Shown here piece after piece: positions 5,377 through 27,631 of a DNA stretch of 64,000 bases. Numbering within the stretch: the first letter of the stretch is position 1; each line of letters starts with the position of its first letter. The stretch is taken from NCBI GenBank assembly GCA_022819805.1, contig JAJEGO010000014.1, positions 6,521 through 70,520 on the forward strand, written 5' to 3'. The DNA is from Candidatus Dadabacteria bacterium. GTDB taxonomy: Bacteria > Desulfobacterota_D > UBA1144 > Nemesobacterales > Nemesobacteraceae. The notes below the pieces were generated by a model that saw only the letters and a program-made list of their open reading frames with translations, had not been told where the DNA came from and ran no database searches. A program made the position numbers and the translations under genes.

Positions 5377-6153
5377 ATGGGAAAAGAGAGATCCGCTCAG
5401 CTAAAAGTAGGGATTTTCGTTCTGGTGTCAATCGCTATTTTCGTTTACGGAGTTTTCACGATAAGCGGCCAGGAGGAACTCTTTGAGAAGGAGTACACGG
5501 TAAAGACTTACTTTGATAACACCGCGGGGCTCCTTGAAGGTGCCTACGTGCGCCTCTCGGGCGTTGGAGTGGGGTCGGTTTCCTCCATCCGCTTTTCTGA
5601 TGACCCCTCCCTGGGGAAAGTTCAGGTAGTGATGGAGATAAACAAGCGGGCACTTGCCAGGGTCTCGACTGACTCTCACGCCACGATCAAGACAGAAGGG
5701 CTTTTGGGAGCGAAATTCGTCGAGATAGTTCCCGGCCGGGGAGAGAGCATAGGGAAAGCTCGCGACGGAATCGTTATAAGGGGCTACACGTCGCCCGAGA
5801 TGCAGGAGATAATAAGCCAGTCAGAGGAGTTCGTCACGAACCTTACGGCTATCTCGAGGAACCTGGACAAGATAGTGGCGGCGTTTGCGGATGAGAATCA
5901 GGAGGGTTTCCTGCACACCCTGATCTACGATGAGCAGTTCGCTACGGACATGAAAAGCTTCTCCTCCAACCTGGCCGAGGTTTCACGGATGATCAGGGAA
6001 GGGGAGGGCTCGATCGGGGGGCTTGTAGTCGATCCGTCGGTTCACGATGCGCTTAAAGGAGTGCTCGGGGAGGCCGAGAGAAACAGGTTCGTGCGTTCCG
6101 CCGTGAGGTATATGATAGAAGAAAAGGAGAAAAGGGCGTCGGAAGAGCATTAG
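5377..6153 (+). CDS. MCE/MlaD-domain protein (periplasmic substrate-binding component of an Mla-like system)
   Basis: N-terminal TM helix (LKVGIFVLVSIAIFVYGVF) followed by an MCE domain (YTVKTYFDNTAGLLEGAYVRLSGVGVGSV...). No mlaE/mlaF neighbours. Confidence 0.6.
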   Translation: MGKERSAQLKVGIFVLVSIAIFVYGVFTISGQEELFEKEYTVKTYFDNTAGLLEGAYVRLSGVGVGSVSSIRFSDDPSLGKVQVVMEINKRALARVSTDSHATIKTEGLLGAKFVEIVPGRGESIGKARDGIVIRGYTSPEMQEIISQSEEFVTNLTAISRNLDKIVAAFADENQEGFLHTLIYDEQFATDMKSFSSNLAEVSRMIREGEGSIGGLVVDPSVHDALKGVLGEAERNRFVRSAVRYMIEEKEKRASEEH

Positions 6154-6229
6154 AATTTCCGCGAAAAGCGGGCTTTGCTCCTGGCGGCGCTTTAATATCA
6201 AGTCAGAGAATTTTAAGGAGGTAATAGAA

Positions 6230-7009
6230 ATGTTAACTAGAAGATTTTTGGTTTTTTTAATTGCACTTGTTTTCTGCGCCGTCCCGCTCACGGCGACGCA
6301 CGCGGATCAGTGCTCGACCAAGGCGGCGGGCAGCTCCACTTCGCTTCCGGGTCCCCAGCTCGTAACCGGCGCGTGGATGTTCATCGCGGCCTACAAGGCC
6401 GATCCGGAAGTATTGAAATCGATGCTTCCGGCGGGCCTAAAGCCGCATCCGAACAATCACATAGTCATCAACATGTACACGGTTCCCGACAAGAACCAGA
6501 CCTCGGGATTCGGGGCGTACACGCTCACCTATCTCACGGTCGAGCTTGACGGAAACGACTCGTACGTTATGGATTCGGACATAACCTACCCGGGAAGGTA
6601 TTTCGTCCAGTACTACAACAGCTCTCCCAGGATGAGGGAATTCACGAAGGCTGTCGGCATTCCCGCACAGGAGGGAATGACTACCACGGTGGTAAAGGAC
6701 GGCGTGCTTACGGCAAAGCTTGAAGTCGGCGGCAAGACGATGATCAAGGCAACGGCCGAGGTCGGGAGCGAGCTCGGAGGTTTCGGCGGAGGGCACCTCA
6801 ACTACTTCGGCTATCTGAAGGAGAAGGGGAAAGTGGTCAAGTACCCGATTCCGTGGAACGGGGGAACGGTGTCCATGGCCAACCCGAAAATAATGATCAA
6901 GGCCCCCAAGGACCATACGCTCAGCAAGCTCAAGCCGCTTGGAGACCCCACCTGGGCCATCTGGACCAAGGGAAGCTTCGTCTACCCCCAGTACCAGGTA
7001 ATGAACTGA
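6230..7009 (+). CDS. Secreted hypothetical protein (signal peptide, about 235-aa mature domain)
   Basis: Strong RBS aaggaggtaatagaaATG. Signal peptide MLTRRFLVFLIALVFCAVPLTATHA. No motif recognised with confidence. Confidence 0.4.
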   Translation: MLTRRFLVFLIALVFCAVPLTATHADQCSTKAAGSSTSLPGPQLVTGAWMFIAAYKADPEVLKSMLPAGLKPHPNNHIVINMYTVPDKNQTSGFGAYTLTYLTVELDGNDSYVMDSDITYPGRYFVQYYNSSPRMREFTKAVGIPAQEGMTTTVVKDGVLTAKLEVGGKTMIKATAEVGSELGGFGGGHLNYFGYLKEKGKVVKYPIPWNGGTVSMANPKIMIKAPKDHTLSKLKPLGDPTWAIWTKGSFVYPQYQVMN

Positions 7010-7039
7010 ACTTAAAGTAACCATAATTTTCAGGGGTTG

Positions 7040-7080
7040 CGCTCCGAAGCCTCCCGCTTCGGGGGGCGCCCCTTTTTTTC
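7040..7080 (+). terminator. Rho-independent terminator after the 6230-7009 gene
   Basis: GC-rich hairpin ctccgaagc-ctcc-gcttcgggg followed by the run cccctttttttc. Confidence 0.6.
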
Positions 7081-7090
7081 TCTTGCCGAC

Positions 7091-7705
7091 ATGACCAGAT
7101 CGGATTACCCCGTTTTATTTGTAATAAGCGAGATAAACGCGTTTTTCGTGCTGCTTCTCTTCTTCACGCTCCGCGCGGAGATGCCCGGCGTGTACTCCAC
7201 GCTTGCGGGGGTGCAGTGGGGGCTTTTCATACTGAGTCCCGTGATCCACTTTCTTTTTCTCCGGTTTTTCTCCCAGTGGTCCTCGCTTGTCCAGTTCGCG
7301 AAGTTCTGTATGATAAGCTTTTCAAACCTCGTGATCGACTTCGGGATACTCAACCTGCTCATCTATTACTCCGGGGTGGCCGAGGGGATTCTCTACTCGG
7401 TTTTCAAGGCGGCTTCCTTTATCCTGGCGAACGTTAATGGGTATGCGTGGAACAAGTTCTGGACGTTTCAAAGCAATGGGGCCGAGGGGTGGATGAACCA
7501 GCTAATAAAATTCTTCGCCGTAGTGGGCGTGGGGCTTGTGATAAACGTTGCGGTCGCTTCCTACGTGGTCGCCGAGTTCGGCGGTTCGGGAGGGTCCATC
7601 TCCTCCACGGTGTGGGCGAACATAGGAGCCGCGGTGTCTTTGATATTCACGCTTTTCTGGAATTTTTTCGGCCTTAAGTATCTGGTTTTCGAGAAAAAGT
7701 CGTGA
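7091..7705 (+). CDS. GtrA-family integral membrane protein
   Basis: Four predicted TM helices. GtrA-like motifs FAKFCMISFSNLVIDFGILNLL and NVNGYAWNKFWTFQ. Confidence 0.55.
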   Translation: MTRSDYPVLFVISEINAFFVLLLFFTLRAEMPGVYSTLAGVQWGLFILSPVIHFLFLRFFSQWSSLVQFAKFCMISFSNLVIDFGILNLLIYYSGVAEGILYSVFKAASFILANVNGYAWNKFWTFQSNGAEGWMNQLIKFFAVVGVGLVINVAVASYVVAEFGGSGGSISSTVWANIGAAVSLIFTLFWNFFGLKYLVFEKKS

Positions 7706-7907
7706 AGAAATAACGTCAAGCACTTTGCCGAGACACGACAATTAACCTGGTTGGGAGTTATATATAATCCTAACCAAGAGAGAATAGATGGAGACGTTTA
7801 AATCTCTTAATCGTCAAAGTCTCTTATAATTTTTTCGGGATACCATTTTACGCCGTCAAACGTTATCAGGTAATATCCACTATCCGAAAAGCCCGAGGGG
7901 TGTTCAA

Positions 7908-8144
7908 TTGAGCATGGACTCGAAAAAACTAGCAAAGACAGGAACCGAAAACCTCAATGTCGCAATCTTGAGTGTCCTGCGTACAAACGGCTGGCTTACA
8001 GTTAGAGAAATTTCAGAAAAACTCGCTATACCTTATAGGTGTGGTTGTAGAAACTTGATTAGACCCTTTTTGTGGGAATTACGCAGAGAGGGTCGGGTCG
8101 TCAAAGAGAAAAAACACGGTTGGAAATGGGGTTTGCCTGTCTGA
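7908..8144 (+). CDS. Small hypothetical protein, possibly winged-helix DNA-binding, in the AT-rich islet
   Basis: 78-aa ORF in a region of about 33-40% GC. The stretch ILSVLRTNGWLTVREISEKL resembles a recognition helix. Weak call. Confidence 0.3.
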   Translation: MSMDSKKLAKTGTENLNVAILSVLRTNGWLTVREISEKLAIPYRCGCRNLIRPFLWELRREGRVVKEKKHGWKWGLPV

Positions 8145-8217
8145 GTCTCGGGGATGTCCAGTCAAGAATGTAATTGAACCGATTGATGCAACGCCGGAAC
8201 AGATATAGAAGGTTGCT

Positions 8218-8493
8218 ATGAAAAGAGCAATTTTCTTGTTGTTAGTTTGTTGCATCCTGTTTTTACCAGTTGATGTAAAAGCCGGTTGCAACGATACAGA
8301 ACTCGCTCTATACAGAGAGTGCATGATTGTATCTGAACTGGCAGAAAATATACTAACTTCGCCAGGGTCGTATGAATGGGAAGAGATGGAACGGATAGCA
8401 GACTATATGGAAATATGTGCCAAATTTTTTAGTAGCGACATAGGCAGAATCAACGATTGTAAGAGGCGAGCGTTAGGGAAGCCAAACCCATAA
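8218..8493 (+). CDS. Small secreted Cys-containing hypothetical protein in the AT-rich islet
   Basis: Signal-peptide-like N-terminus MKRAIFLLLVCCILFLPVDVKA. Four further Cys. About 30% GC. Confidence 0.3.
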   Translation: MKRAIFLLLVCCILFLPVDVKAGCNDTELALYRECMIVSELAENILTSPGSYEWEEMERIADYMEICAKFFSSDIGRINDCKRRALGKPNP

Positions 8494-8672
8494 CTACTTA
8501 TTGCGGATTAAAGAACATTGGGAAAAGCAAGAATTTTCCAATGGAAAGCTCAAATATTGCCGAAGAGAGGGTGAATTTATCAATAAAACGGTGGCGGATT
8601 TGTCAATAGGAATCGGGCACATTTGATATTAGCGTGACAACCAGAATTCAAATACGGCCTGTGGAGAGTGAG

Positions 8673-15459: not shown

Positions 15460-18400
15460 ATGGTGGAACATAAGCGGCTTGTCTCTCGGGTAGAGTGCCA
15501 GCGAAAACCCCTCTTGTCCCCGCATCCAGGCAAGGAAAGGGCCAAGCCAGTCCCGAACCGGGCGGATTTTGGGTTACTTGAAACCTTACTGACGCTCTTT
15601 TGCCTAAAGGCCCTGCGTTCCTCATCTTTTATTAGAAAAACAGCAATCCTGAAAAGCAGGATCTGCCTCCTGCTGGCGGTGCTTTTGCCGCTAGCGGTTC
15701 TTTCCGTAACCGCACACGCTGCCAACGGGGATCTTCGATTGTGCGATACCACGGTCACGAACAGCTGTACGGTTACGACTGACATAGGCAGGCTCGAAGT
15801 TGAGTATAACGGGATGTGGAAGGGGGTGTGCGATGACTATTTCACGAGTCACGAGGCAAGAGTCGCGTGCGGGCAATTAAATTACCCCAATTCACGATAC
15901 GCTAAGACTCTGTTGAGGCTGGACGGACCGACGAGAGCGCATCGTCATAACGGCGAATTCTGGCTTGATGATCTGCTCTGTGGCCAAGGTGATAATACTG
16001 TGGACAACAAGCTGATGGATTGTGCTAGGGCTGGTTCTGGTGCAGGTAATGAAATTGAACCCGGAGAGTCTGGTTATTGGGGGGAGCATAACTGCAAAAG
16101 CAATGAATATGCGGGGGTTGTATGCGTTATCACCGCTCCGGCTAAGCCTACGAACCTGGAAGCGGAAGCTAAGGGGCAGAGCATGATAGTGCTTAATTGG
16201 CGTGCTCCCAACTCCTATGTGGAAGGCTACAAAATCGAGGTCTCAGAGAATGGTGGCAACGACTGGGATGATCTTGAGTCCGACACTGGCAATGCGGACA
16301 CGACATATACCCATAGCGGCCTCCCTCCCAGCGCCACGCGACACTACCAGGTTTCGGCTATTAACTCAGAGGGCACAAGCGATCCTTCAAACATAGCAAG
16401 CGCCACGACAGAAGGCGTACCTCCTCCTTCGGATCAACCTGGAACGGTGGCCCTGTCTTTTTCGCAGCTCGAGATCGGGACGGCGTTAACTGCGACTTTA
16501 ACTGATCCTGACGGTTCTATAGCGAATGTCGAGTGGACATGGTACAGGTCAGCTGACAAAAGCAACTGGAATCCGATCTCCGGCGCCACGAGCAGCGGTT
16601 CTGCGACCGCGACCTACACGCCGGTTGCCGACGGCGATCCGAATGTTGAAGATGACGAGGATAAATACCTGCGGGCGGTGGCCTCTTATGACGATGGCCA
16701 CGGTCCCAATAAAAGCGCGGAGGCGGAATCCGCCAGCAAGGTTCCTGCAGTAAACTGGGCGCCCTCCTTTGATCCTGATCCGCCACCGAGCACCTTTTCT
16801 GTTGACGAGAACACGGGGACTGGAGTAAACATCGGGACGCCGATCGGGGTTACGGATCCGGAAGGTGAACCGCTCACCTACTCGCTTGACGATGGGGACG
16901 GCGATTCGTTCGCCATTGATTCCTCCGGGCAGATAAAGACCAAGTCGGCGCTTGACTACGAAGTCAAAAGTTCTTACACGGTCGAAGTTAAAGTCACGGA
17001 CGGAACCACGGAGATTACGACCACCGTGACCATTAACGTAACCAATGTTGAGGAAGATGGGACCGTGACCCTGTCTAGTTATTCTCCGAATGTGGGAATA
17101 GAGCTGACCGCTGAATTGGAGGATCCTGACGACGGTGTAACGGGTATCACATGGCAGTGGCAGCGCAAGTCATCCGGCGGGACTTTCACGAATATCCCCG
17201 GCGCCACGAGCAGCGGTTCTGCGACCGCAACCTACACGCCGTCCACAGGAGATCTGAATCATCTTCTGCGGGCAAAGGCATCCTACACGGACGGGCACGG
17301 TTCCAACACCGACATGGCGTATGCGGATTCAAACGAAGCGGTAACGGACACATGCCCTCCAAACCACCAAAACGAGGCGCCCGAGTTCAAAATCTCACCA
17401 CCCACGTTTTCTGTGGCTGAGAACACGAGGTCCGGAGTAAATGTCGGGACGCCGGTTACGGCTGAGGATGGAGACGCCGGTCAGCAAATCAGGCTCACCT
17501 ACTCGCTTGACGATGGGGACGGCGATTCGTTTTCCATTGAGAATGACAATTCTCCCGGGCAGATAAAGACCAAGTCGGCGCTTGACTACGATACGCAAGA
17601 TTCTTATACGGTCACGGTTTCCGTAACGGATCCGTGCGGCGAGGAAGATACCATCGACGTAACAATCAACGTTACCGAGCCCGCACCTCCGTCTTCAAAC
17701 ACGAGGGCACCCAACTCCGAGGTGACGAAGTCCGCCCCGGCTCCAACGGCAAAGGTTCCGCAGGCTCCCGCGAATTTAACTGCGGGGCGCGGTGACGGCG
17801 AGGTAACGCTTAGCTGGAGGGTCCCGAATGACGGCGGAAGCGTTATTAAGTACTACGAATACATGATTGATGATGGCCCGTGGATCTCGACCAAGGGAAA
17901 ATCCACTACCCACACTGTCGCCGGGCTTACCAACGGAGAGACCTATAAATTCAAGGTGCACGCGGTGAACGTCATCGGTCCCGGTCCCGGGTCAAGACCG
18001 GTGAAAGCCACGCCTGCCACCGTGCCCGGCCCCCCGCGCAATCTGACGGTGGCTCCGGGCGATCAGCGCGCGACGCTTATGTGGGAGCGGCCTGCGGATA
18101 ACGGCGGTCTTCCGATCACCAGTTACGAGTACGTCCAGAAGGAGGGAAGCGGCTCGTTCGGCAGCTGGATATCCATAGATAACAGCGGTCCCATGGAGAC
18201 AAATGAAACGAGCTATGTGGTCACGGGACTTAAAGACGGCACCGTTTATTCTTTCAAGGTGCGCGCGGTGAACGCCGTGGGTCCGGGAGACGCCTCGGCC
18301 GAGGCCACGGCCGAGACGAGCACTTCCGCCTCCCGGCGCCTGAGGCGCGTCAGCCTCAGCATTCTTCCCGAGTTCGGGAGGACCCTGGCGAGGAATTCCC

Positions 18401-19887
18401 TTGACGCGCTTGCCTGGCGTCTTGACAGCGTCCTTTCGGGATCCTTTGAGCGTACGGGGATGTTCAGGCTTATGGATCAGCACGCGGGGCTCCACGATGT
18501 CATCGGAATTGATATATGGGATGATCCGGAACTGTCGGAAGAGCTCAGCCTCGAGGAGTTGCTCTACGGGTCTTCATTCATAATCGAGGCCGGAGGGATG
18601 CCTAGGAAACCAAAGCAATATCCAACAAAACAGCGGCCTAAGGAAGCTCCCAAGAAGCATGCCGGGGAACATTCGAAAGAATTACCGGAAGAATTACGGA
18701 GGGAATATCCTCAGGATGAGGATATGTGGATTGACGAGGGCGGAAAACCGAATCTCATCGAGAGGCGGGGCGATATGGCGTTTTGGGGCAAGGCGGACTA
18801 CAGCGCCCTCTCGGTCGGCAGAAGCGGCGAAAACCTGAGCTGGGATGGCGGCATAACAAGCGGTTATCTCGGGGTCGACAGACGGTTAACCGAGAATGTG
18901 CTGACGGGAATTTCCGTCGCTTTGACGAAGGGAGATTTCGATTACACGGACTCCACCCCGGGGGAGGGAGGAAGCGGAGATTACCATGTGAAGATGCTCA
19001 GCGTGTCTCCGTACATCGCGTGGCTTATGTCCGAGGATGCTTACCTCTGGGGCGCAATCGGCTATGGACGCGGGGAAATAGACATAGACGACGAAGAAGT
19101 CCAGAGCGTCGCTTCAGGCGACCTCAGCTACAAGTCGGTGGCCGCGGGAGGAAGTGGCAGAGTGTTTGACTTGGGAGACACTACCTTCTCGCTTAAAGGT
19201 GAAGCGTTTAAGGTATGGATGGACGTGGAGGGCGAAGATTACCTGATTGATGACTCATCCGTGGGTGTACACCAGCTGCGCCTCGGCATGGAGGGAAGCT
19301 ACGAGTACCGCTTCGCGTCCGGAGCCTGGTTCAATCCCCTTGTGGAGGTCGCTCTTCGCCACGACGGGGGAGACGGGGAGACGGGCACCGGGGTTGAAAT
19401 CGGAGGCGGTTTCCTCTTCGAAGACCCGGATATGGGTCTTAGCATTGCGGGCAGGGGGCGCTGGCTGGCGGTGCACAGTTCCGATGAGTTCAGTCAATGG
19501 GGAGTTGGAGGAACCGTGATCTTCGATACGGGAGCGGACAAAGAAGGCGCGCTGTTCAGCGTGGCTCCCGGATGGGGAGACACTTCAAGCGGGATTGAGA
19601 ATCTCTGGGAGCGCGGAGCGGAAGGGGTGTCGTCAGAATACGGCAGAGACAACAGTCTGCATCTTGACGCGGAGTTCGGATACGGACTCCCGGCTCTCGG
19701 CGGGGACGGGATTCTCACTCCCTACAGCGGACTCAGGATGAGAGCAGACGGGTGGCGACAGTACCGCCTCGGCAGTCGTCTGGATCTCGGGCGTTCTACG
19801 AGTCTGAGCCTTGAAACCGAGCGAAGGCAGAGCGATGCGAAGAAGCCTGAGCACGGAATCATGCTGAGAGGAAAGCTTAATTTCTGA
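15460..19887 (+). CDS. Giant surface protein, predicted type V autotransporter adhesin with SRCR-like, FN3 (x3), cadherin (x2) and unclassified repeat (x2) passenger modules
   Basis: 1475-aa ORF. A signal-peptide-like segment (ILKSRICLLLAVLLPLAVLSVTAHA) follows a roughly 60-aa N-terminal extension. The SRCR-like domain spans residues about 91-223 (EVEYNGMWKGVCDD, ARVACGQL, FWLDDLLC, WGEHNC, AGVVCV). Two cadherin repeats carry F-S-V-D/A-E-N, LTYSLDDGDGDSF, QIKTKSALDYE/D and TVTINVT motifs. FN3 modules have W..P..GG..I..Y.Y and Y.F.V.AVN motifs. A helical linker precedes a roughly 370-aa C-terminal beta-domain ending ...GIMLRGKLNF, i.e. a terminal Phe. Confidence 0.8.
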   Translation: MVEHKRLVSRVECQRKPLLSPHPGKERAKPVPNRADFGLLETLLTLFCLKALRSSSFIRKTAILKSRICLLLAVLLPLAVLSVTAHAANGDLRLCDTTVTNSCTVTTDIGRLEVEYNGMWKGVCDDYFTSHEARVACGQLNYPNSRYAKTLLRLDGPTRAHRHNGEFWLDDLLCGQGDNTVDNKLMDCARAGSGAGNEIEPGESGYWGEHNCKSNEYAGVVCVITAPAKPTNLEAEAKGQSMIVLNWRAPNSYVEGYKIEVSENGGNDWDDLESDTGNADTTYTHSGLPPSATRHYQVSAINSEGTSDPSNIASATTEGVPPPSDQPGTVALSFSQLEIGTALTATLTDPDGSIANVEWTWYRSADKSNWNPISGATSSGSATATYTPVADGDPNVEDDEDKYLRAVASYDDGHGPNKSAEAESASKVPAVNWAPSFDPDPPPSTFSVDENTGTGVNIGTPIGVTDPEGEPLTYSLDDGDGDSFAIDSSGQIKTKSALDYEVKSSYTVEVKVTDGTTEITTTVTINVTNVEEDGTVTLSSYSPNVGIELTAELEDPDDGVTGITWQWQRKSSGGTFTNIPGATSSGSATATYTPSTGDLNHLLRAKASYTDGHGSNTDMAYADSNEAVTDTCPPNHQNEAPEFKISPPTFSVAENTRSGVNVGTPVTAEDGDAGQQIRLTYSLDDGDGDSFSIENDNSPGQIKTKSALDYDTQDSYTVTVSVTDPCGEEDTIDVTINVTEPAPPSSNTRAPNSEVTKSAPAPTAKVPQAPANLTAGRGDGEVTLSWRVPNDGGSVIKYYEYMIDDGPWISTKGKSTTHTVAGLTNGETYKFKVHAVNVIGPGPGSRPVKATPATVPGPPRNLTVAPGDQRATLMWERPADNGGLPITSYEYVQKEGSGSFGSWISIDNSGPMETNETSYVVTGLKDGTVYSFKVRAVNAVGPGDASAEATAETSTSASRRLRRVSLSILPEFGRTLARNSLDALAWRLDSVLSGSFERTGMFRLMDQHAGLHDVIGIDIWDDPELSEELSLEELLYGSSFIIEAGGMPRKPKQYPTKQRPKEAPKKHAGEHSKELPEELRREYPQDEDMWIDEGGKPNLIERRGDMAFWGKADYSALSVGRSGENLSWDGGITSGYLGVDRRLTENVLTGISVALTKGDFDYTDSTPGEGGSGDYHVKMLSVSPYIAWLMSEDAYLWGAIGYGRGEIDIDDEEVQSVASGDLSYKSVAAGGSGRVFDLGDTTFSLKGEAFKVWMDVEGEDYLIDDSSVGVHQLRLGMEGSYEYRFASGAWFNPLVEVALRHDGGDGETGTGVEIGGGFLFEDPDMGLSIAGRGRWLAVHSSDEFSQWGVGGTVIFDTGADKEGALFSVAPGWGDTSSGIENLWERGAEGVSSEYGRDNSLHLDAEFGYGLPALGGDGILTPYSGLRMRADGWRQYRLGSRLDLGRSTSLSLETERRQSDAKKPEHGIMLRGKLNF

Positions 19888-22483: not shown

Positions 22484-23614
22484 GTGAGCAGAACAGCCTA
22501 CCTGATAATCGATTCGAGCGAGCGCAACTCGGACCTTTTCCACCGAACCGGTTTTTTCGTTCCGGATCCCGTTATCTTTTTCGAGCACGACGGAGAGGGA
22601 ACCCTGGTTCTTAGCGATCTTGAACTTGAACGGGGAAAAAAAGAGGCAAAGGTGGAACGGGTTGTTTCCCTGAGGGAATGCGTCGGCAGGATTAGCGGCG
22701 GGAGAAGGAAAAGTCCCGGCATCGTGGAGGTGGCCGCGGCTCTTCTTAAGGAAAGGGGAATAAGGAGCCTGATTGTTCAGAGGCGCTTTCCGGTTTTCTA
22801 TGCCGACGCGCTGCGGAGAGCCGGTTTTTTCGTCAAGACCGCGAAGACAGATTTTCTTTTTCCTGAGCGTCTCAGAAAATCCCCGGCGGAAGTCCTACTC
22901 ATAAGGAAGGCGCTTTCCGCTACGGCATGGGCCATGAGGATTGCTGTTTCAATTATATCGGGTTCAGTGGTGAAGGGTTCCGTGCTTTACCATGACGGCA
23001 AGCCCCTTACCTCCGAGATAGTGCGCTCCGCCGTAAGCTCCTATCTTGCCGCACGGGGGTATCTGGCTTCGAACACCATAGTGGCCGGAGGGGTTCAGGG
23101 CTCTATGCCCCACGAGAAGGGTTCGGGCCCTCTTAAGGCCGGGTGGCCTGTGGTGATCGATATTTTCCCGAGATCCCAGGAGAACGGCTACTTTGGCGAT
23201 ATGACGAGAACGGTTGTTAAGGGTGAGCCTTCGGCGGAACTTTTAAGGATGTACGATACCGTTTTGCGCGGCCAGAAAATCGCACTTTCCATGATAAAAG
23301 ATGGCGTGAGATCAAAAGATGTGCACAACGCGGTAGTGGATTTTTTCACCGAACGCGGATTTGCGACCACGGCTTCGGGTTCTGGAAGCCCCGAGGGCTT
23401 CATACATTCCACGGGACACGGCCTCGGGCTTGACATACATGAGCCGCCGCGGATCGGATTCGGGAAGGAGATTTTAAGGGAGGGAAACGTTGTTACGGTC
23501 GAGCCTGGTCTTTACTACGAGCATCTCGGTGGAGTCAGGATAGAGGATGTGGTTCTGGTGACGCGCGACGGAAACGAAAACCTGACTCGATGCTCCAAGA
23601 GGTTTCGGGTCTAG
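22484..23614 (+). CDS. M24-family Xaa-Pro aminopeptidase/dipeptidase
   Basis: Creatinase-like N-terminal domain plus an M24 metal-binding domain (DIFP...DMTRT, HSTGHGLGLDIHEPP, VVTVEPGLY, EDVVLVT). Probable GTG start at 22484. Confidence 0.8.
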   Translation: MSRTAYLIIDSSERNSDLFHRTGFFVPDPVIFFEHDGEGTLVLSDLELERGKKEAKVERVVSLRECVGRISGGRRKSPGIVEVAAALLKERGIRSLIVQRRFPVFYADALRRAGFFVKTAKTDFLFPERLRKSPAEVLLIRKALSATAWAMRIAVSIISGSVVKGSVLYHDGKPLTSEIVRSAVSSYLAARGYLASNTIVAGGVQGSMPHEKGSGPLKAGWPVVIDIFPRSQENGYFGDMTRTVVKGEPSAELLRMYDTVLRGQKIALSMIKDGVRSKDVHNAVVDFFTERGFATTASGSGSPEGFIHSTGHGLGLDIHEPPRIGFGKEILREGNVVTVEPGLYYEHLGGVRIEDVVLVTRDGNENLTRCSKRFRV

Positions 23615-23628
23615 TTGCTCCAGGAACT

Positions 23629-24399
23629 ATGGAAGAGAAAAAGACTTTCGAGGATATAGTTTCACTTGCGAGGCGTCTTCGCGCTCCGGGAGGCTGCCCA
23701 TGGGACAGAGAGCAGACGCTCGAGTCGCTTCGGGCGTACGTTCTTGAAGAGGCCTACGAGGTGATACAGGCAATAGAACTTCAGGACACGGACGGACTCA
23801 TGGAGGAGCTAGGAGATTTTCTCTTCCAGGTTGTTTTTATTTCCCAGATAGCGAACGAGGAGGGGAGGTTCGACATAGGCGACGTCACCCAGAGGCTCCA
23901 TGACAAACTTATAAGAAGGCACCCTCACGTGTTCGGGGCGAAAAAGGCCAAGGACGCTGAAGAGGCCTTAAGGACCTGGAACGCCGAGAAACTCAAGGAG
24001 AAAAAAGGGAAACCCGATCTGGAGGAAATACCGAGAGCCATGCCCTCTTTGATGAGGGCGCAGAGAGTCGGCGAGAAGGCGGCCCGCTCTGGATTTGACT
24101 GGAGCGATGTTTCCTCGGCTCTTGCGAAGGTAAAAGAGGAGTTGGCCGAGCTTGAGCGTGAGATTGAGGCCGGCGAGAAAGACAGGTGCCGGGAGGAGTG
24201 GGGGGACCTCGTTTTCTCCGTCGTGAACATCGCAAGACACCTCGACATCGACGCCGAGACCGCGTCTCACGGGGCCACTGAGAAGTTCATAGAGAGATTC
24301 TCCCGGTTCGAGGAGAAAGCACAGACCGCAGAGAAAGAGATAACCGCTCTTTCCGCAGAGCAAATGGACGAGATCTGGGAAGAGGTAAAAAAGAGATAG
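23629..24399 (+). CDS. mazG: Nucleoside triphosphate pyrophosphohydrolase MazG (tandem MazG domains)
   Basis: CPWDREQTLESLRAYVLEEAYEV plus a second EEWGDLVFSVVNIARHL repeat. Confidence 0.85.
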   Translation: MEEKKTFEDIVSLARRLRAPGGCPWDREQTLESLRAYVLEEAYEVIQAIELQDTDGLMEELGDFLFQVVFISQIANEEGRFDIGDVTQRLHDKLIRRHPHVFGAKKAKDAEEALRTWNAEKLKEKKGKPDLEEIPRAMPSLMRAQRVGEKAARSGFDWSDVSSALAKVKEELAELEREIEAGEKDRCREEWGDLVFSVVNIARHLDIDAETASHGATEKFIERFSRFEEKAQTAEKEITALSAEQMDEIWEEVKKR

Positions 24400-24457
24400 T
24401 TTTTTGGGTATTGTTTAGCGGGTTTGAAAAGGATTAACAGGCAAAGGAGAAGATAAC

Positions 24458-25363
24458 ATGAGATACACAGCGGCAAATGCGAGTTTTTGGCTTGTGGCGA
24501 TACTTTTGATTCTTGGTTCATCGCAGGCTTCGGCCGAGGATAAGTTCTATATCGGGCTTGAGGGGGGATTTTCAAAGTCGGGAGATCTGGGCATTTCCCA
24601 TTCTTTTGTAAATCACCCAACCCGGTGCGATTCGCTTCTTTATCCCTCGGGCGCGACTCCGCCGACTGACGCGGAATGTGTGGCCGATAAAACATCGACC
24701 GTCGCGAATGTGTTTAGCCCCGGCACGGGGTTTGTGGCCGGTGCGACTTTTGGTTATGCGCTCGGCAACGGGCTGCGCTTTGAAGCGGAGTACCTTAACC
24801 GCCGTCAGTCCTCCGAGAGAAGGCTCGTGCGTCTCGGTTCGGCGAGCGATGATCCGCTTGATCAGAAGAGCAGTGAATGGGATGAGAACGATCCTCCCTC
24901 AGAACGCGTGTATGACATCGGTGCACATCATCTCTTCCTGAACGCTTACTATGACTTGCGCAATGACTCGCCTATTACGCCTTATGTCGGAGCCGGTGTA
25001 GGCATGGGGTCGGTGGAAATGCGCTACTCGGCGAGATTCCTGCGCAGGAGCGATCTGGGAACGGAGCCATGGCAGGATGCCGCGGAAGGCACAACCAGCT
25101 CCATTAATCCTGCGCTTAAAAAAATCAGGTTCGGTTTTCAGGTGATAGGCGGAGTTGATTACGCGCTTGGCGACGATTTCTCAGTTGGCGCCAAGGTCCG
25201 CTGGACACGCCTCAGCGGTTTTGACCGCGACGACGTGCCCTGGACCGAAATCCGGGACCACGCACCTGTACGGGCCGACGGGGTTACGCCGCTTACTTCA
25301 GATTTTGAAGTGGATGACATGGATAACTGGACCGTTACGGTAGGGCTCAAGTATTATCTCTGA
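24458..25363 (+). CDS. Outer membrane beta-barrel protein (OmpA-like TM barrel family), paralog 1
   Basis: Signal peptide MRYTAANASFWLVAILLILGSSQASA. Amphipathic beta-strand pattern. Ends GLKYYL. RBS aaggaga. Confidence 0.7.
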   Translation: MRYTAANASFWLVAILLILGSSQASAEDKFYIGLEGGFSKSGDLGISHSFVNHPTRCDSLLYPSGATPPTDAECVADKTSTVANVFSPGTGFVAGATFGYALGNGLRFEAEYLNRRQSSERRLVRLGSASDDPLDQKSSEWDENDPPSERVYDIGAHHLFLNAYYDLRNDSPITPYVGAGVGMGSVEMRYSARFLRRSDLGTEPWQDAAEGTTSSINPALKKIRFGFQVIGGVDYALGDDFSVGAKVRWTRLSGFDRDDVPWTEIRDHAPVRADGVTPLTSDFEVDDMDNWTVTVGLKYYL

Positions 25364-25510
25364 ACGCTCTACTTTCCGACAAGCGTTCCCATGAGTTTCC
25401 AGTCTTCTTCCACTAAGGTTCCACTTGCGGCGGCGCAGTCCTTTTTCGTTTCGGCTGGTATTGTTTGACCGTGAACGGTTCTTGAGTTGAGAGATACAAG
25501 GAGAAAATAC

Positions 25511-26419
25511 ATGAGACATTTTGCTGGCAACGGGTGTTATTGGTTTGTGGCAGTTCTTTTGGCGTCCGCCTTGTCGGTGACGGATTCCGCGGCGGAAGGT
25601 TTCTATATCGGGCTTGAAGGGGGATTTTCAAAGTCGGGAGACTTGAACGTTTCCCAGTCTTTCATTGATCATCCGACCCGGTGCGATTCGTTTCTCTATC
25701 CTTCCGGCACGACTCCGCCGACCGACCCGGAATGCACCACCGATAGAATATCTACCATTGCAAACGTTTTTGTCCCCGGCGCGGGGTTTATGGGTGGCGC
25801 AACTCTTGGATACGCGCTCGGCAACGGGCTGCGTTTTGAGGCGGAGTATCTAAACCGCCGCCAGGGTTCGCAGAGAAAGCTCGTGCGCCTCGGTTCCGGC
25901 GGCGGCGAAACGTTCGATCAAAAGCAGAGCGAATGGGACGAGAACGATCCTCCCTCAGAACACGTGTATGACTTAAGGGCCCATCATTTCTTCCTGAATG
26001 TCTACTACGACCTGCGCAACGACTCGCCCTTTACGCCCTATATCGGAGGAGGCGCGGGTTTGGGTTCGACGGAAATGCGCTACTCGGCCAGATTCCTGCG
26101 CGGGAGCGCCCTGGGTACGGAACCGTGGCAGGTGGCCGTGGCGGGCACGCTCAGCGACATAGACACGGAACTGGGAAAAACCAGGTTCGGTTTTCAGGTG
26201 ATAGGCGGAGTTGATTACGCGCTTGGCGACGATTTCTCAGTTGGCGCCAAGGTCCGCTGGACACGCCTCAGCGGTTTTGACCGCGACGAGGTGTCCTGGA
26301 CGCGGGTCAGAGGCCACGAATCCATACGCGTCGACGGCGTTACGCCGCTTACGGCCGATTTCGAGGTGGATGACACAGACATCTGGACCTTTACGGTCGG
26401 GCTTAAGTATTATCTCTGA
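25511..26419 (+). CDS. Outer membrane beta-barrel protein, paralog 2 (tandem duplicate)
   Basis: About 75-80% identical to paralog 1, with the same Cys pair (RCDS...PPTD.EC) and the same ...GLKYYL terminus. Start at ATG 25511 after aaggagaaaatac. Confidence 0.7.
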   Translation: MRHFAGNGCYWFVAVLLASALSVTDSAAEGFYIGLEGGFSKSGDLNVSQSFIDHPTRCDSFLYPSGTTPPTDPECTTDRISTIANVFVPGAGFMGGATLGYALGNGLRFEAEYLNRRQGSQRKLVRLGSGGGETFDQKQSEWDENDPPSEHVYDLRAHHFFLNVYYDLRNDSPFTPYIGGGAGLGSTEMRYSARFLRGSALGTEPWQVAVAGTLSDIDTELGKTRFGFQVIGGVDYALGDDFSVGAKVRWTRLSGFDRDEVSWTRVRGHESIRVDGVTPLTADFEVDDTDIWTFTVGLKYYL

Positions 26420-26425
26420 ACGCCT

Positions 26426-27631
26426 CTACTTCCGGACAAGAGTTCCCATGAGCTTCCAGCCTTGCTCGACGAAGATTCCGCTTGAGGCGGCGCTGTCCTC
26501 GGTGTAGACAAGCGAGGCATTTTTTACCAAGCGGTTCGCGGAATCAAGTATGGCGAAGGGAACGGGCTCGTTCGAGTGGGTTCTGAGGTCTATGGGGGTG
26601 GGGTGGTCCGAGAGCACAAGCACCCTGTATTCGCCGAACTGCTCCATCCCCGCAAGCGCAGGCCCCACTACCTTCTGGTCGAAATCCTCGATCGCCCGTA
26701 TCTTGAGGCGGGCGTCTCCCACATGCCCCGTTTCGTCAGGCGCCTCTATGTGGATCATCGCGAGGTCGACCCGGCGCAGCGAGTCAAGAGCGCCGCTTAC
26801 CTTTCCCGCGTAGTTCGTGTCAAGGTACCCGGTCGCTCCCGGAACCTCGATCACTTCCATCGCGGCGAATACGCCTATTCCCTTTACGAGATCGACCGCC
26901 GATATAACGGATCCGGTGATTCCGTAAAGCTCCTGAAGGGACGGCATGTCGGGTCTTGTTCCCTCGCCCCAGAGCCATATGGAGTCGGCGGTGTTTTCCC
27001 CCTCGGCCCTTCTTTTTGCGTTCACGGGGTGATCCTTCAGTATCCCGCGGGATTTCTCCATGAGGCCGAGGAGTTTTTCCGCCCCGTCTCCTGAGGGAAA
27101 CCAGGGGGCGATTTCCTTTCCGGAAATGTCATGAGGCGGAGTTGTTCGGATACCGCTGTTTCCTCCGCGCCAGAGGAGAAGATGCCTGTAGCTTACCCCC
27201 TGGCTCAGCGAAAACTCCTCCCCGTCGAACTCTTTTTTCAGGTCCTCGATTATCCCGGCGGCGTCTTCGTCCGTTATGTGCCCGGCGCTGTAGTCCTCCA
27301 TGACCGTCCGTCCGTCTCTCTCCGCGAGGGTTACGAGGTTGCAGCGGACCGTGACGTCCCTGTCCCCGAGCGAAACCCCGATGCTCGCGGCTTCAAGGGG
27401 GGATCTTCCCGTGTAGTATTTCGTCGGGTTGTAGCCCAGCACCGCCAGGTTTCCCACGTCGCTTCCCGGGGGGAGAGGATCTGGAATGGTCTTCGCGGTC
27501 CCGAAAATCTCCGCCCGCTTCGCTATCGCATCAAGATTCGGGGTGTCGGCCACTTCAAGCGGAGTCCTGCCATCGAGCTCGGAAAGCTTGTGGTCGGGCA
27601 TGCCGTCGCCTTGGAGGATGAGGTATTTCAC
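26426..27631 (-). CDS. 2,3-bisphosphoglycerate-independent phosphoglycerate mutase, archaeal-type (ApgM family; alkaline phosphatase superfamily)
   Basis: 401 aa. N-terminus MKYLILQGDGMPD...TPLEVADTPNLDAIA and metal-binding His/Asp motifs typical of the apgM family. Family-level call only. Confidence 0.7.
   Translation of the reverse strand: MKYLILQGDGMPDHKLSELDGRTPLEVADTPNLDAIAKRAEIFGTAKTIPDPLPPGSDVGNLAVLGYNPTKYYTGRSPLEAASIGVSLGDRDVTVRCNLVTLAERDGRTVMEDYSAGHITDEDAAGIIEDLKKEFDGEEFSLSQGVSYRHLLLWRGGNSGIRTTPPHDISGKEIAPWFPSGDGAEKLLGLMEKSRGILKDHPVNAKRRAEGENTADSIWLWGEGTRPDMPSLQELYGITGSVISAVDLVKGIGVFAAMEVIEVPGATGYLDTNYAGKVSGALDSLRRVDLAMIHIEAPDETGHVGDARLKIRAIEDFDQKVVGPALAGMEQFGEYRVLVLSDHPTPIDLRTHSNEPVPFAILDSANRLVKNASLVYTEDSAASSGIFVEQGWKLMGTLVRK

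Follow-up and report, generated by a model that had tools for sequence, protein, structure and literature searches.

In bacteria such as Salmonella and Escherichia coli, tandem duplications arise by illegitimate or unequal recombination and are later collapsed by homologous recombination. Gene conversion acts on several families of outer-membrane protein (OMP) paralogues, including opa of Neisseria, babA/babB of Helicobacter and msp2 of Anaplasma. [quoted passage not shown] The locus described here lies in a stretch of 64,000 nucleotides (nt) from a Candidatus Dadabacteria genome (contig JAJEGO010000014.1 of assembly GCA_022819805.1, positions 6,521 to 70,520; hereafter the window), in which two OMP genes, OMP1 and OMP2, stand head to tail on one strand between mazG and apgM without an intervening gene. 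Comparison with relatives shows this pair to be one state of a recombination-prone locus, which we think is probably an array of two old OMP types that recombination has repeatedly built, collapsed and patched.

Like the duplications of Salmonella and E. coli, the array consists of head-to-tail units in which a novel join puts the far end of the unit beside its start, and loss via the repeats would account for single or hybrid genes and for differences in copy number between close relatives. In classical duplications the copies are of recent date, identical and unstable, whereas the units at this locus are 21% diverged in DNA, belong to lineages older than the species and appear to have been assembled by several independent joins. 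As in the Vibrio orphan arrays, an incoming variant would be anchored by homology on one side and attached by an illegitimate join on the other, shifting the resident gene together with a remnant of its neighbour, and repeated events would give arrays that differ among close strains. Unlike the case in Vibrio, we infer the one-sided anchor from comparison of related loci (the third copy of L173, a locus of the same species, fits it best), the OMPs are not toxin/immunity pairs, and no displaced gene loses function because apgM is reconstituted. With opa, babA/babB and msp2 the locus has in common paralogous small beta-barrel surface proteins, short conversion tracts and matches to the Pfam families Opacity and Surface_Ag_2; in contrast to them, it has no phase-variable repeats, no hypervariable loops, no omega (dN/dS) above 1 and no silent donor cassettes, and its copies are adjacent rather than dispersed.

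The junction between OMP1 and OMP2

The array and its boundary genes are arranged as follows (positions in the window):

23590-24399, plus strand: mazG (Pfam MazG, E=7e-37), left boundary gene of the array
24400-24457, plus strand: OMP1 upstream region (type A); ribosome-binding site AAGGAG, 24444-24449
24458-25363, plus strand: OMP1 (type 1), an open reading frame (ORF) of 301 amino acids (aa); PF13505, E=4.5e-11; type-1 clade, bootstrap 99%
25364-25442, minus strand: junction scar, a relic of the apgM 3' end with 82.5% identity to 26420-26499 (E=1e-14)
25443-25510, plus strand: type-B upstream region of OMP2, with AAGGAG at 25498-25503; illegitimate join at 25442/25443
25511-26419, plus strand: OMP2 (type 2), an ORF of 302 aa; PF13505, E=5e-14; type-2 clade, bootstrap 100%
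26426-27631, minus strand: apgM, convergent right boundary gene of the cofactor-independent phosphoglycerate mutase family; Pfam PhosphMutase and Metalloenzyme, with NCBIfam PRK04200 and TIGR00306 above cut-off

Each OMP gene has its own ribosome-binding site and its own upstream region. The start of OMP2 is placed at the ATG that follows the AAGGAG site, in agreement with the length of database homologues, and not at the TTG at 25487 given by a mechanical ORF list. An earlier note on this DNA, made from the sequence alone, had described the two genes as tandem duplicates with 75-80% protein identity; their homology is borne out (BLASTP, 220/302, E=7e-170), but the identity, 73%, is a little under that range. 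Both proteins end in GLKYYL and carry the extracellular-loop cysteine pair, as the note had claimed. At the DNA level the units 24444-25442 and 25498-26499 are approximately 79% identical, with a spacing of 1056-1057 nt.

The sequence following OMP1 had been read correctly as a duplicated fragment of the real apgM 3' end. Its match to 26420-26499 extends over 80 nt and is the junction's only significant match in the window (runner-up, E=0.8), and on the minus strand it is translated in frame, with the stop kept (...DCAAASGTLVEEDWKLMGTLVGK*), as the last 25 codons and stop of apgM. Its counterpart in the functional gene, which ends ...WKLMGTLVRK*, is 26426-26499. With a relic of the apgM 3' end in the junction, the repeated unit did extend into apgM; the relic abuts an OMP upstream region at 25443. 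The related proposal, that one duplicated unit ran from upstream of the OMP gene into apgM, stands for its apgM end; at the other, similarity begins only ~14 nt before the ATG and the upstream types differ. The type-A upstream region of OMP1 aligns with those of seven related loci (L081, L083, L088, L001, L003, L090 and copy 2 of L087). The type-B upstream region of OMP2 finds its match in the whole interval between mazG and the OMP gene of L002, of L084 and of copy 1 of L087, the alignment beginning 1-3 nt past the mazG stop codon of these three.

The note had allowed that the tandem pair might be an assembly artefact. Such an artefact would be two strain alleles of one OMP gene stitched together by the assembler. 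In favour of such an error, the assembly is of metagenome type and co-occurring strains of this species differ in copy number; but the two copies are only 79% identical, so an assembler would not confuse them. L173, from another sample and a separate metagenome assembly, has the same junction at 98-99% identity, complete with the private substitutions of the scar and the adjoining type-B upstream region; the metagenome scaffold L174 carries the same two-gene array and matches the window at 99.99% identity over 6.9 kb; and analogous arrays occur in other assemblies (L087, L090, L171). An artefact is thereby largely refuted and retains hardly any credibility.

Where the relic meets the T-rich type-B upstream region there is a weak 5-bp hairpin with a T-run at 25425-25447 (TTGCGGCGGCGCAG TCCTTTTTCG), which could act as a weak terminator after OMP1, its score being marginal and near the shuffled expectation. 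A promoter scan gave three weak promoter-like sites, two inside the 3' ends of genes and one antisense over the boundary of the OMP1 3' end and the scar, with counts near the shuffled expectation.

Two OMP types in at least six array states

Gene order (pepP, mazG, OMP gene or genes, convergent apgM, DUF2237, aroA, cmk) is kept in all close relatives, with mazG as the constant left neighbour of the OMP gene(s) across all related loci. Those database homologues that bear a name are labelled Candidatus Dadabacteria. The OMP genes form two clades, with bootstrap values of 99% for type 1, which holds OMP1, and 100% for type 2, which holds OMP2 (nucleotide neighbour-joining tree, signal peptide and conversion tract excluded), and a protein neighbour-joining tree of ~60 homologues also parts type 1 from type 2. 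OMP1 and OMP2 are both nearer to single-copy genes from other species than to each other; the closest relatives of OMP1 are the single-copy genes of L088 and L083 (86% at the aa level). At the mazG/apgM site the window shows one of at least six array states:

Type 2 alone: L001, L002, L003, L172
Type 1 alone: L081/L082, L083, L088/L089
Single hybrid of types 1 and 2: P0023 in L175/L176, and also P0015, P0018 and P0022, with type-1 residues at 23-30 and type-2 residues beyond
[1][2]: window, L174, L090
[2][1]: L087, L171
[1][2][1']: L173

The earlier note had proposed checking relatives for single-copy states, and these are found at the mazG/apgM site in L001-L003, L172, L081, L083, L088, L084 and L175. 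The outgroup lineages L084, L004 and L005 have one gene, which is type-1-like at diagnostic positions.

These states might also descend from a single ancient tandem duplication, made in place in the ancestor of the clade, whose copies diverged in situ and whose present variety came from differential loss, from erosion of junctions by small deletions and from secondary rearrangement. Such a history is a serious alternative, though clearly the less probable one. The two types are sister clades and the outgroup genes are single-copy and type-1-like, both of which favour it; the hybrid single genes imply the collapse of [1][2] in further lineages; and a three-copy array does exist (L173). On this view the [2][1] order would be explained, for example, by a transient three-copy array that lost its first copy. 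Against an ancient duplication, the repeat geometry is such that unequal crossing-over within [1][2] cannot alone give [2][1]. That route, considered by itself as the origin of [2][1], was rejected, as it yields only products of the type [1][1/2 hybrid][2].

Beyond the close relatives, homologues of 30-43% identity occur in metagenome-assembled genomes of other phyla (Nitrospirales, Acidobacteriota, Opitutia, Candidatus Palauibacter, Binatia and Gammaproteobacteria; L006-L016), and tandem copies are present among these distant homologues (two in L012, three in L014 and two in L016). A scan of JGI metagenomes returned distant relatives only (≤31% identity, a few matches to short fragments excepted); none of its matches was a Dadabacteria locus.

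Junction classes and copy number within species

The OMP and apgM stop codons are only 6-14 nt apart, and therefore the addition of a complete OMP unit must break inside apgM; because the break falls there, an apgM relic is found in every array junction. Four junction classes were distinguished in five lineages:

Window and L173 junction 1, [1][2]: a 79-nt apgM relic directly onto the type-B upstream region (the sequence after the mazG stop in L002, L084 and L087 copy 1)
L090 junction, [1][2]: ~45 nt of apgM, ~40 nt of the mazG 3' end, then the type-A upstream region
L087 and L171 junction, [2][1]: ~95 nt of apgM, a microhomology of AAGC type, then the last 5 nt of mazG
L173 junction 2, [2][1']: ~105 nt of apgM, then ~190 nt without a match to the other loci compared

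Left breakpoints fall between ~45 nt ahead of the mazG stop and 3 nt past it, and right breakpoints between 45 and 105 nt inside apgM. The unmatched DNA of L173 junction 2 is located at L173 4813-5000. That the four junctions are non-identical, and that their relic lengths and upstream types differ, speaks against descent from one ancient duplication. The [2][1] junction, on the other hand, is common to L087 and L171, which are 92.4% identical; since it has been kept despite 7.6% divergence, arrays can persist, a point in favour of the ancient duplication.

Units that recur at one site while their number and order vary could also be mobile cassettes that an integron- or island-like, site-specific system directs to the mazG/apgM interval. 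However, the units have no flanking integrase, attachment-site repeat or inverted repeat, the positions of the junctions differ from class to class with only 1-5 nt of microhomology, and there is no tRNA, RNA-family or tandem-repeat signal, so that mobile cassettes are very improbable. An Rfam scan of 24000-27000 gave a single chance snoRNA match (E=0.47).

Copy number differs even between loci with nearly identical flanks. L090 ([1][2]) and L001 ([2]) have flanks that are 99.3-99.6% identical; L001 tracks the first upstream region of L090 to ...ggtaccgtttaaag and then runs on as the second copy of L090, a pattern that would be expected from deletion by recombination between repeated upstream segments. 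Loss is the simplest within-species reading of the step from L090 to L001, and to that extent the ancient duplication, which relies on differential loss, is favoured.

The second comparison points the other way. The window (two copies) and L173 (three copies) are of the same species and 98.5-99% identical in both flanks, but the third copy of L173 is as far from copy 1 (dS, synonymous divergence, 0.51) as another species' type-1 gene. On its left side this copy is joined to an apgM relic and unmatched DNA, and on its right the ~330 nt at the apgM 3' end of L173 share no more than 81-87% identity with the window before the 99% level is regained. This arrangement fits the import of a diverged unit by a homologous crossover inside apgM and a non-homologous join at the opposite end. 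The third copy and the adjoining apgM end, being as diverged as another species' gene, are not local duplicates, contrary to the expectation from an ancient duplication. The change would be either a gain in L173 or a replacement in the window. Of the two sides of such an event, the junction of the window itself shows just the illegitimate join. The window was also considered as a simple deletion derivative of the three-copy L173 and rejected as such, the 330 nt at its apgM 3' end matching neither the L173 relic (90%) nor the functional end (81-87%).

The body of the window's apgM (26513-27500) is far closer to L003 (93-99% nt identity, dS 0.16) than the neighbouring genes are (dS 0.46-0.62), which suggests a separate recombination import over most of this gene.

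Age of the window's pair

In the window, dS between OMP1 and OMP2 is 0.62, and between copies within other arrays it is 0.69-0.93, compared with 0.30-0.54 for same-type genes and ~0.4-0.6 for flanking genes between species. Because the divergence of the copies exceeds that between species, the split of type 1 and type 2 predates the species radiation. Between the window and L173, dS is 0.01-0.05, except in apgM (0.14).

Between the scar and the resident apgM end, 13 of 76 sites differ, whereas a scar of the same age as the copy split would be expected to show ~24-32 differences (P ~0.001-0.003 with the window's own dS, and lower with the larger dS of other arrays). Roughly half of the 13 differences are not decay but variants common to the functional apgM ends of type-1-only genomes (...VGK*, a short spacer and DCAAASG, for example); by manual count on the alignment, ~6 substitutions are private to the scar, 5 of them also in L173. 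The scar thus looks younger than the split between the copies, and less diverged than an ancient duplication predicts. Most likely, the window's junction joined two already-diverged genes, after its species had split from the other species sampled and before the window and L173 strains diverged. A single in-place duplication followed by divergence, as the earlier note had it, is not the best explanation of the pair in view of the two old clades, the low divergence of the scar and the different upstream types.

Gene conversion between neighbouring copies

Upon this old divergence a more recent exchange is superimposed:

25126-25233, plus strand: copy 1 side of the gene-conversion tract; the longest exact match, with all 108 nt the same as in 26182-26289
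26182-26289, plus strand: gene-conversion tract, copy 2 side; a type-2 copy with type-1-like bases

Over 26182-26289, OMP2 holds type-1 bases, although type-2 genes elsewhere differ from type 1 at 5-10 sites there, and the chance of an exact run of 108 nt is 1e-5 even at 90% local identity. In L173, of the same species, the longest identical run between copies 1 and 2 is 33 nt over the whole gene, with 97/97/92% identity across the tract region. These patterns show recent gene conversion between OMP1 and OMP2. An independent identical tract of 98 nt is present in L087 and absent from its relative L171.

Proposed origin of the array

The observations are best accommodated, in our judgement, by repeated building, collapse and patching of an array of two old OMP types. 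Units would be added by an illegitimate, microhomology-type join that links the 3' end of apgM to a point at or close to where mazG ends. This would probably happen in the course of unequal recombination, or when DNA from a lineage with the other type is integrated by homology on one side. The displaced apgM 3' end would stay behind as the junction relic, and a complete apgM would be kept at the right end. Arrays would then collapse through homologous recombination between the repeats into single or hybrid genes, while neighbouring copies, as the identical tracts show, swap short segments by gene conversion. All of the processes seen are mechanistically known ones.

Several points weigh against this account. 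The sample is sparse, consisting of metagenome assemblies of ~10 lineages, and gains cannot be polarised against losses because no reliable species tree is obtainable. The age argument assumes that the scar decays neutrally and has itself escaped conversion, and the distinct junctions could in principle stem from one ancestral junction via separate internal deletions. The 3' end of OMP2, the spacer and the C-terminus look type-1-like, so that the units are mosaics and not clean cassettes; the flanking genes are mosaic as well, as the low dS between the apgM genes of the window and L003 (0.16) illustrates. When the subtrees of the two types were compared for congruence by triplets, those of type 1 gave no resolution.

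Predicted structure and role of the OMPs

Both genes match Pfam OMP_b-brl (PF13505) with 43.6 and 53.3 bits against a cut-off of 28.7, and more weakly Opacity (33.9 and 31.9 bits against 21) and Surface_Ag_2. Signal-peptide cleavage-type motifs (ASA/E and SAA/E) were identified by reading of the sequence. An AlphaFold2 model of OMP2 (pLDDT 85, pTM 0.78) has an N-terminal helix (residues 2-20) followed by eight long strands (DSSP assignment read by eye), short turns at 103-106, 168-173 and 238-241, and long loops at 54-78, 125-148, 198-213 and 263-280. The first of these loops holds the cysteine pair (C58 and C75 in OMP2 numbering), which, together with many barrel residues, is invariant in an alignment of 34 sequences. 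The aromatic residues at the C-terminus are penultimate and not terminal (...GLKYYL here, ...KYYP in relatives). According to the model, OMP1 and OMP2 are small outer-membrane beta-barrels (~275 aa when mature), predicted to be 8-stranded.

In a search of the PDB, Foldseek matched the model with probability 1.0 to OmpA, NspA, Ail and OmpX, and OmpT/Pla also matched; the best match is the Legionella Dot/Icm-associated 'porin III'. All TM-scores are 0.27-0.49, with identities of 7-19%, and because no TM-score exceeds 0.49 only the general fold class is assignable and no specific function is transferable. The proteins resemble the OmpA N-domain, OmpX, Ail and NspA in their predicted eight long strands, short periplasmic turns and OMP_b-brl match. 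They differ from these barrels of ~150-170 aa in their mature length, in their longer strands and loops and in a putative disulfide in loop 1, and from OmpA also in having no periplasmic OmpA_C domain.

Two more specific identities were rejected. A general diffusion porin, trimeric with 16-18 strands, is incompatible with a model of ~8 strands whose best structural matches are barrels of 8-10 strands, 'porin family protein' being a generic database label only. An Opa-type phase- or antigen-variable protein of the neisserial kind is suggested by the Opacity match, but tandem repeats are absent, the loops show no hypervariability and no region has an omega as high as 0.5. OMP1 and OMP2 are presumably surface-exposed structural or adhesin-like barrels.

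Selection on the two copies

Both genes are intact and retained under purifying selection, the pairwise omega between copies being 0.18-0.26. This sustains the part of the earlier note that had the duplicates kept by selection, but not its suggestion of surface-antigen or porin diversification, omega being nowhere above 1. The comparison of loop and strand positions that the note had proposed was carried out with a topology-based partition, after identity between OMP1 and OMP2 by DSSP class (strand 75%, coil 79%) had failed to part loops from strands. Omega is 0.21-0.28 in the predicted extracellular parts and 0.11-0.16 in the membrane and periplasmic parts; it approaches 1 in none of them, and loop L1, with the cysteine pair, is well conserved. 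No signal of diversifying selection was detected, omega being below 0.5 in every region, by pairwise methods that have low power for it. Tandem Repeats Finder found no phase-variation repeats.

A more speculative reading, which we regard as rather unlikely, is that the OMP types are a long-lived trans-species balanced polymorphism in these probably sponge-associated Dadabacteria, maintained by negative frequency-dependent pressure such as phage adsorption or host recognition, and that the arrays, with one to three copies in either order, represent repeated 'allele stacking' by one-sided homologous and illegitimate capture of DNA of the other type.

Flanking genes

Besides the models listed above, the window's apgM exceeds the cut-off of TIGR02535, 'proposed homoserine kinase' (516.9 versus 446.3 bits), so that database labels leave the precise enzymatic role of its product ambiguous. 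An exact-protein lookup with this apgM gave no match. In the type-1-only relative L083, apgM is called as two ORFs (5897-7086; 115 and 277 aa), owing either to a frameshift or pseudogene or to a long-read assembly error. A transposase/integrase-like gene with HTH and rve domains lies between DUF2237 and aroA in the outgroup lineage L084 only (7595-8563).

Elsewhere in the window, an ORF of 1475 aa (15460-19887, plus strand) encodes a surface protein with eukaryote-like domains (SRCR, cadherin, fibronectin-III and PKD) and a C-terminal autotransporter beta-domain; similar giants are found in the same relative position in L081, L084 and L172.

Implications

The locus is best seen as a gene array of an ordinary kind that is under active reshuffling, and not as the outcome of a single duplication. 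Annotators should give the 79-nt relic no gene call and should treat the two OMP genes as distinct, both intact and both constrained. Strain-variable copy number at this site matters for the binning and comparison of these metagenome-assembled genomes. If the two types are indeed a balanced polymorphism, gene flow between lineages of an uncultured symbiont would be naturally recorded at this locus, and if balancing selection holds, it would offer a handle on phage or host pressure in these symbionts. The array is a compact example, from an uncultured lineage, of how tight gene packing forces duplications to leave scars of neighbouring genes, and of how illegitimate joins, homologous collapse and gene conversion may together keep a surface-protein locus variable within and between species.

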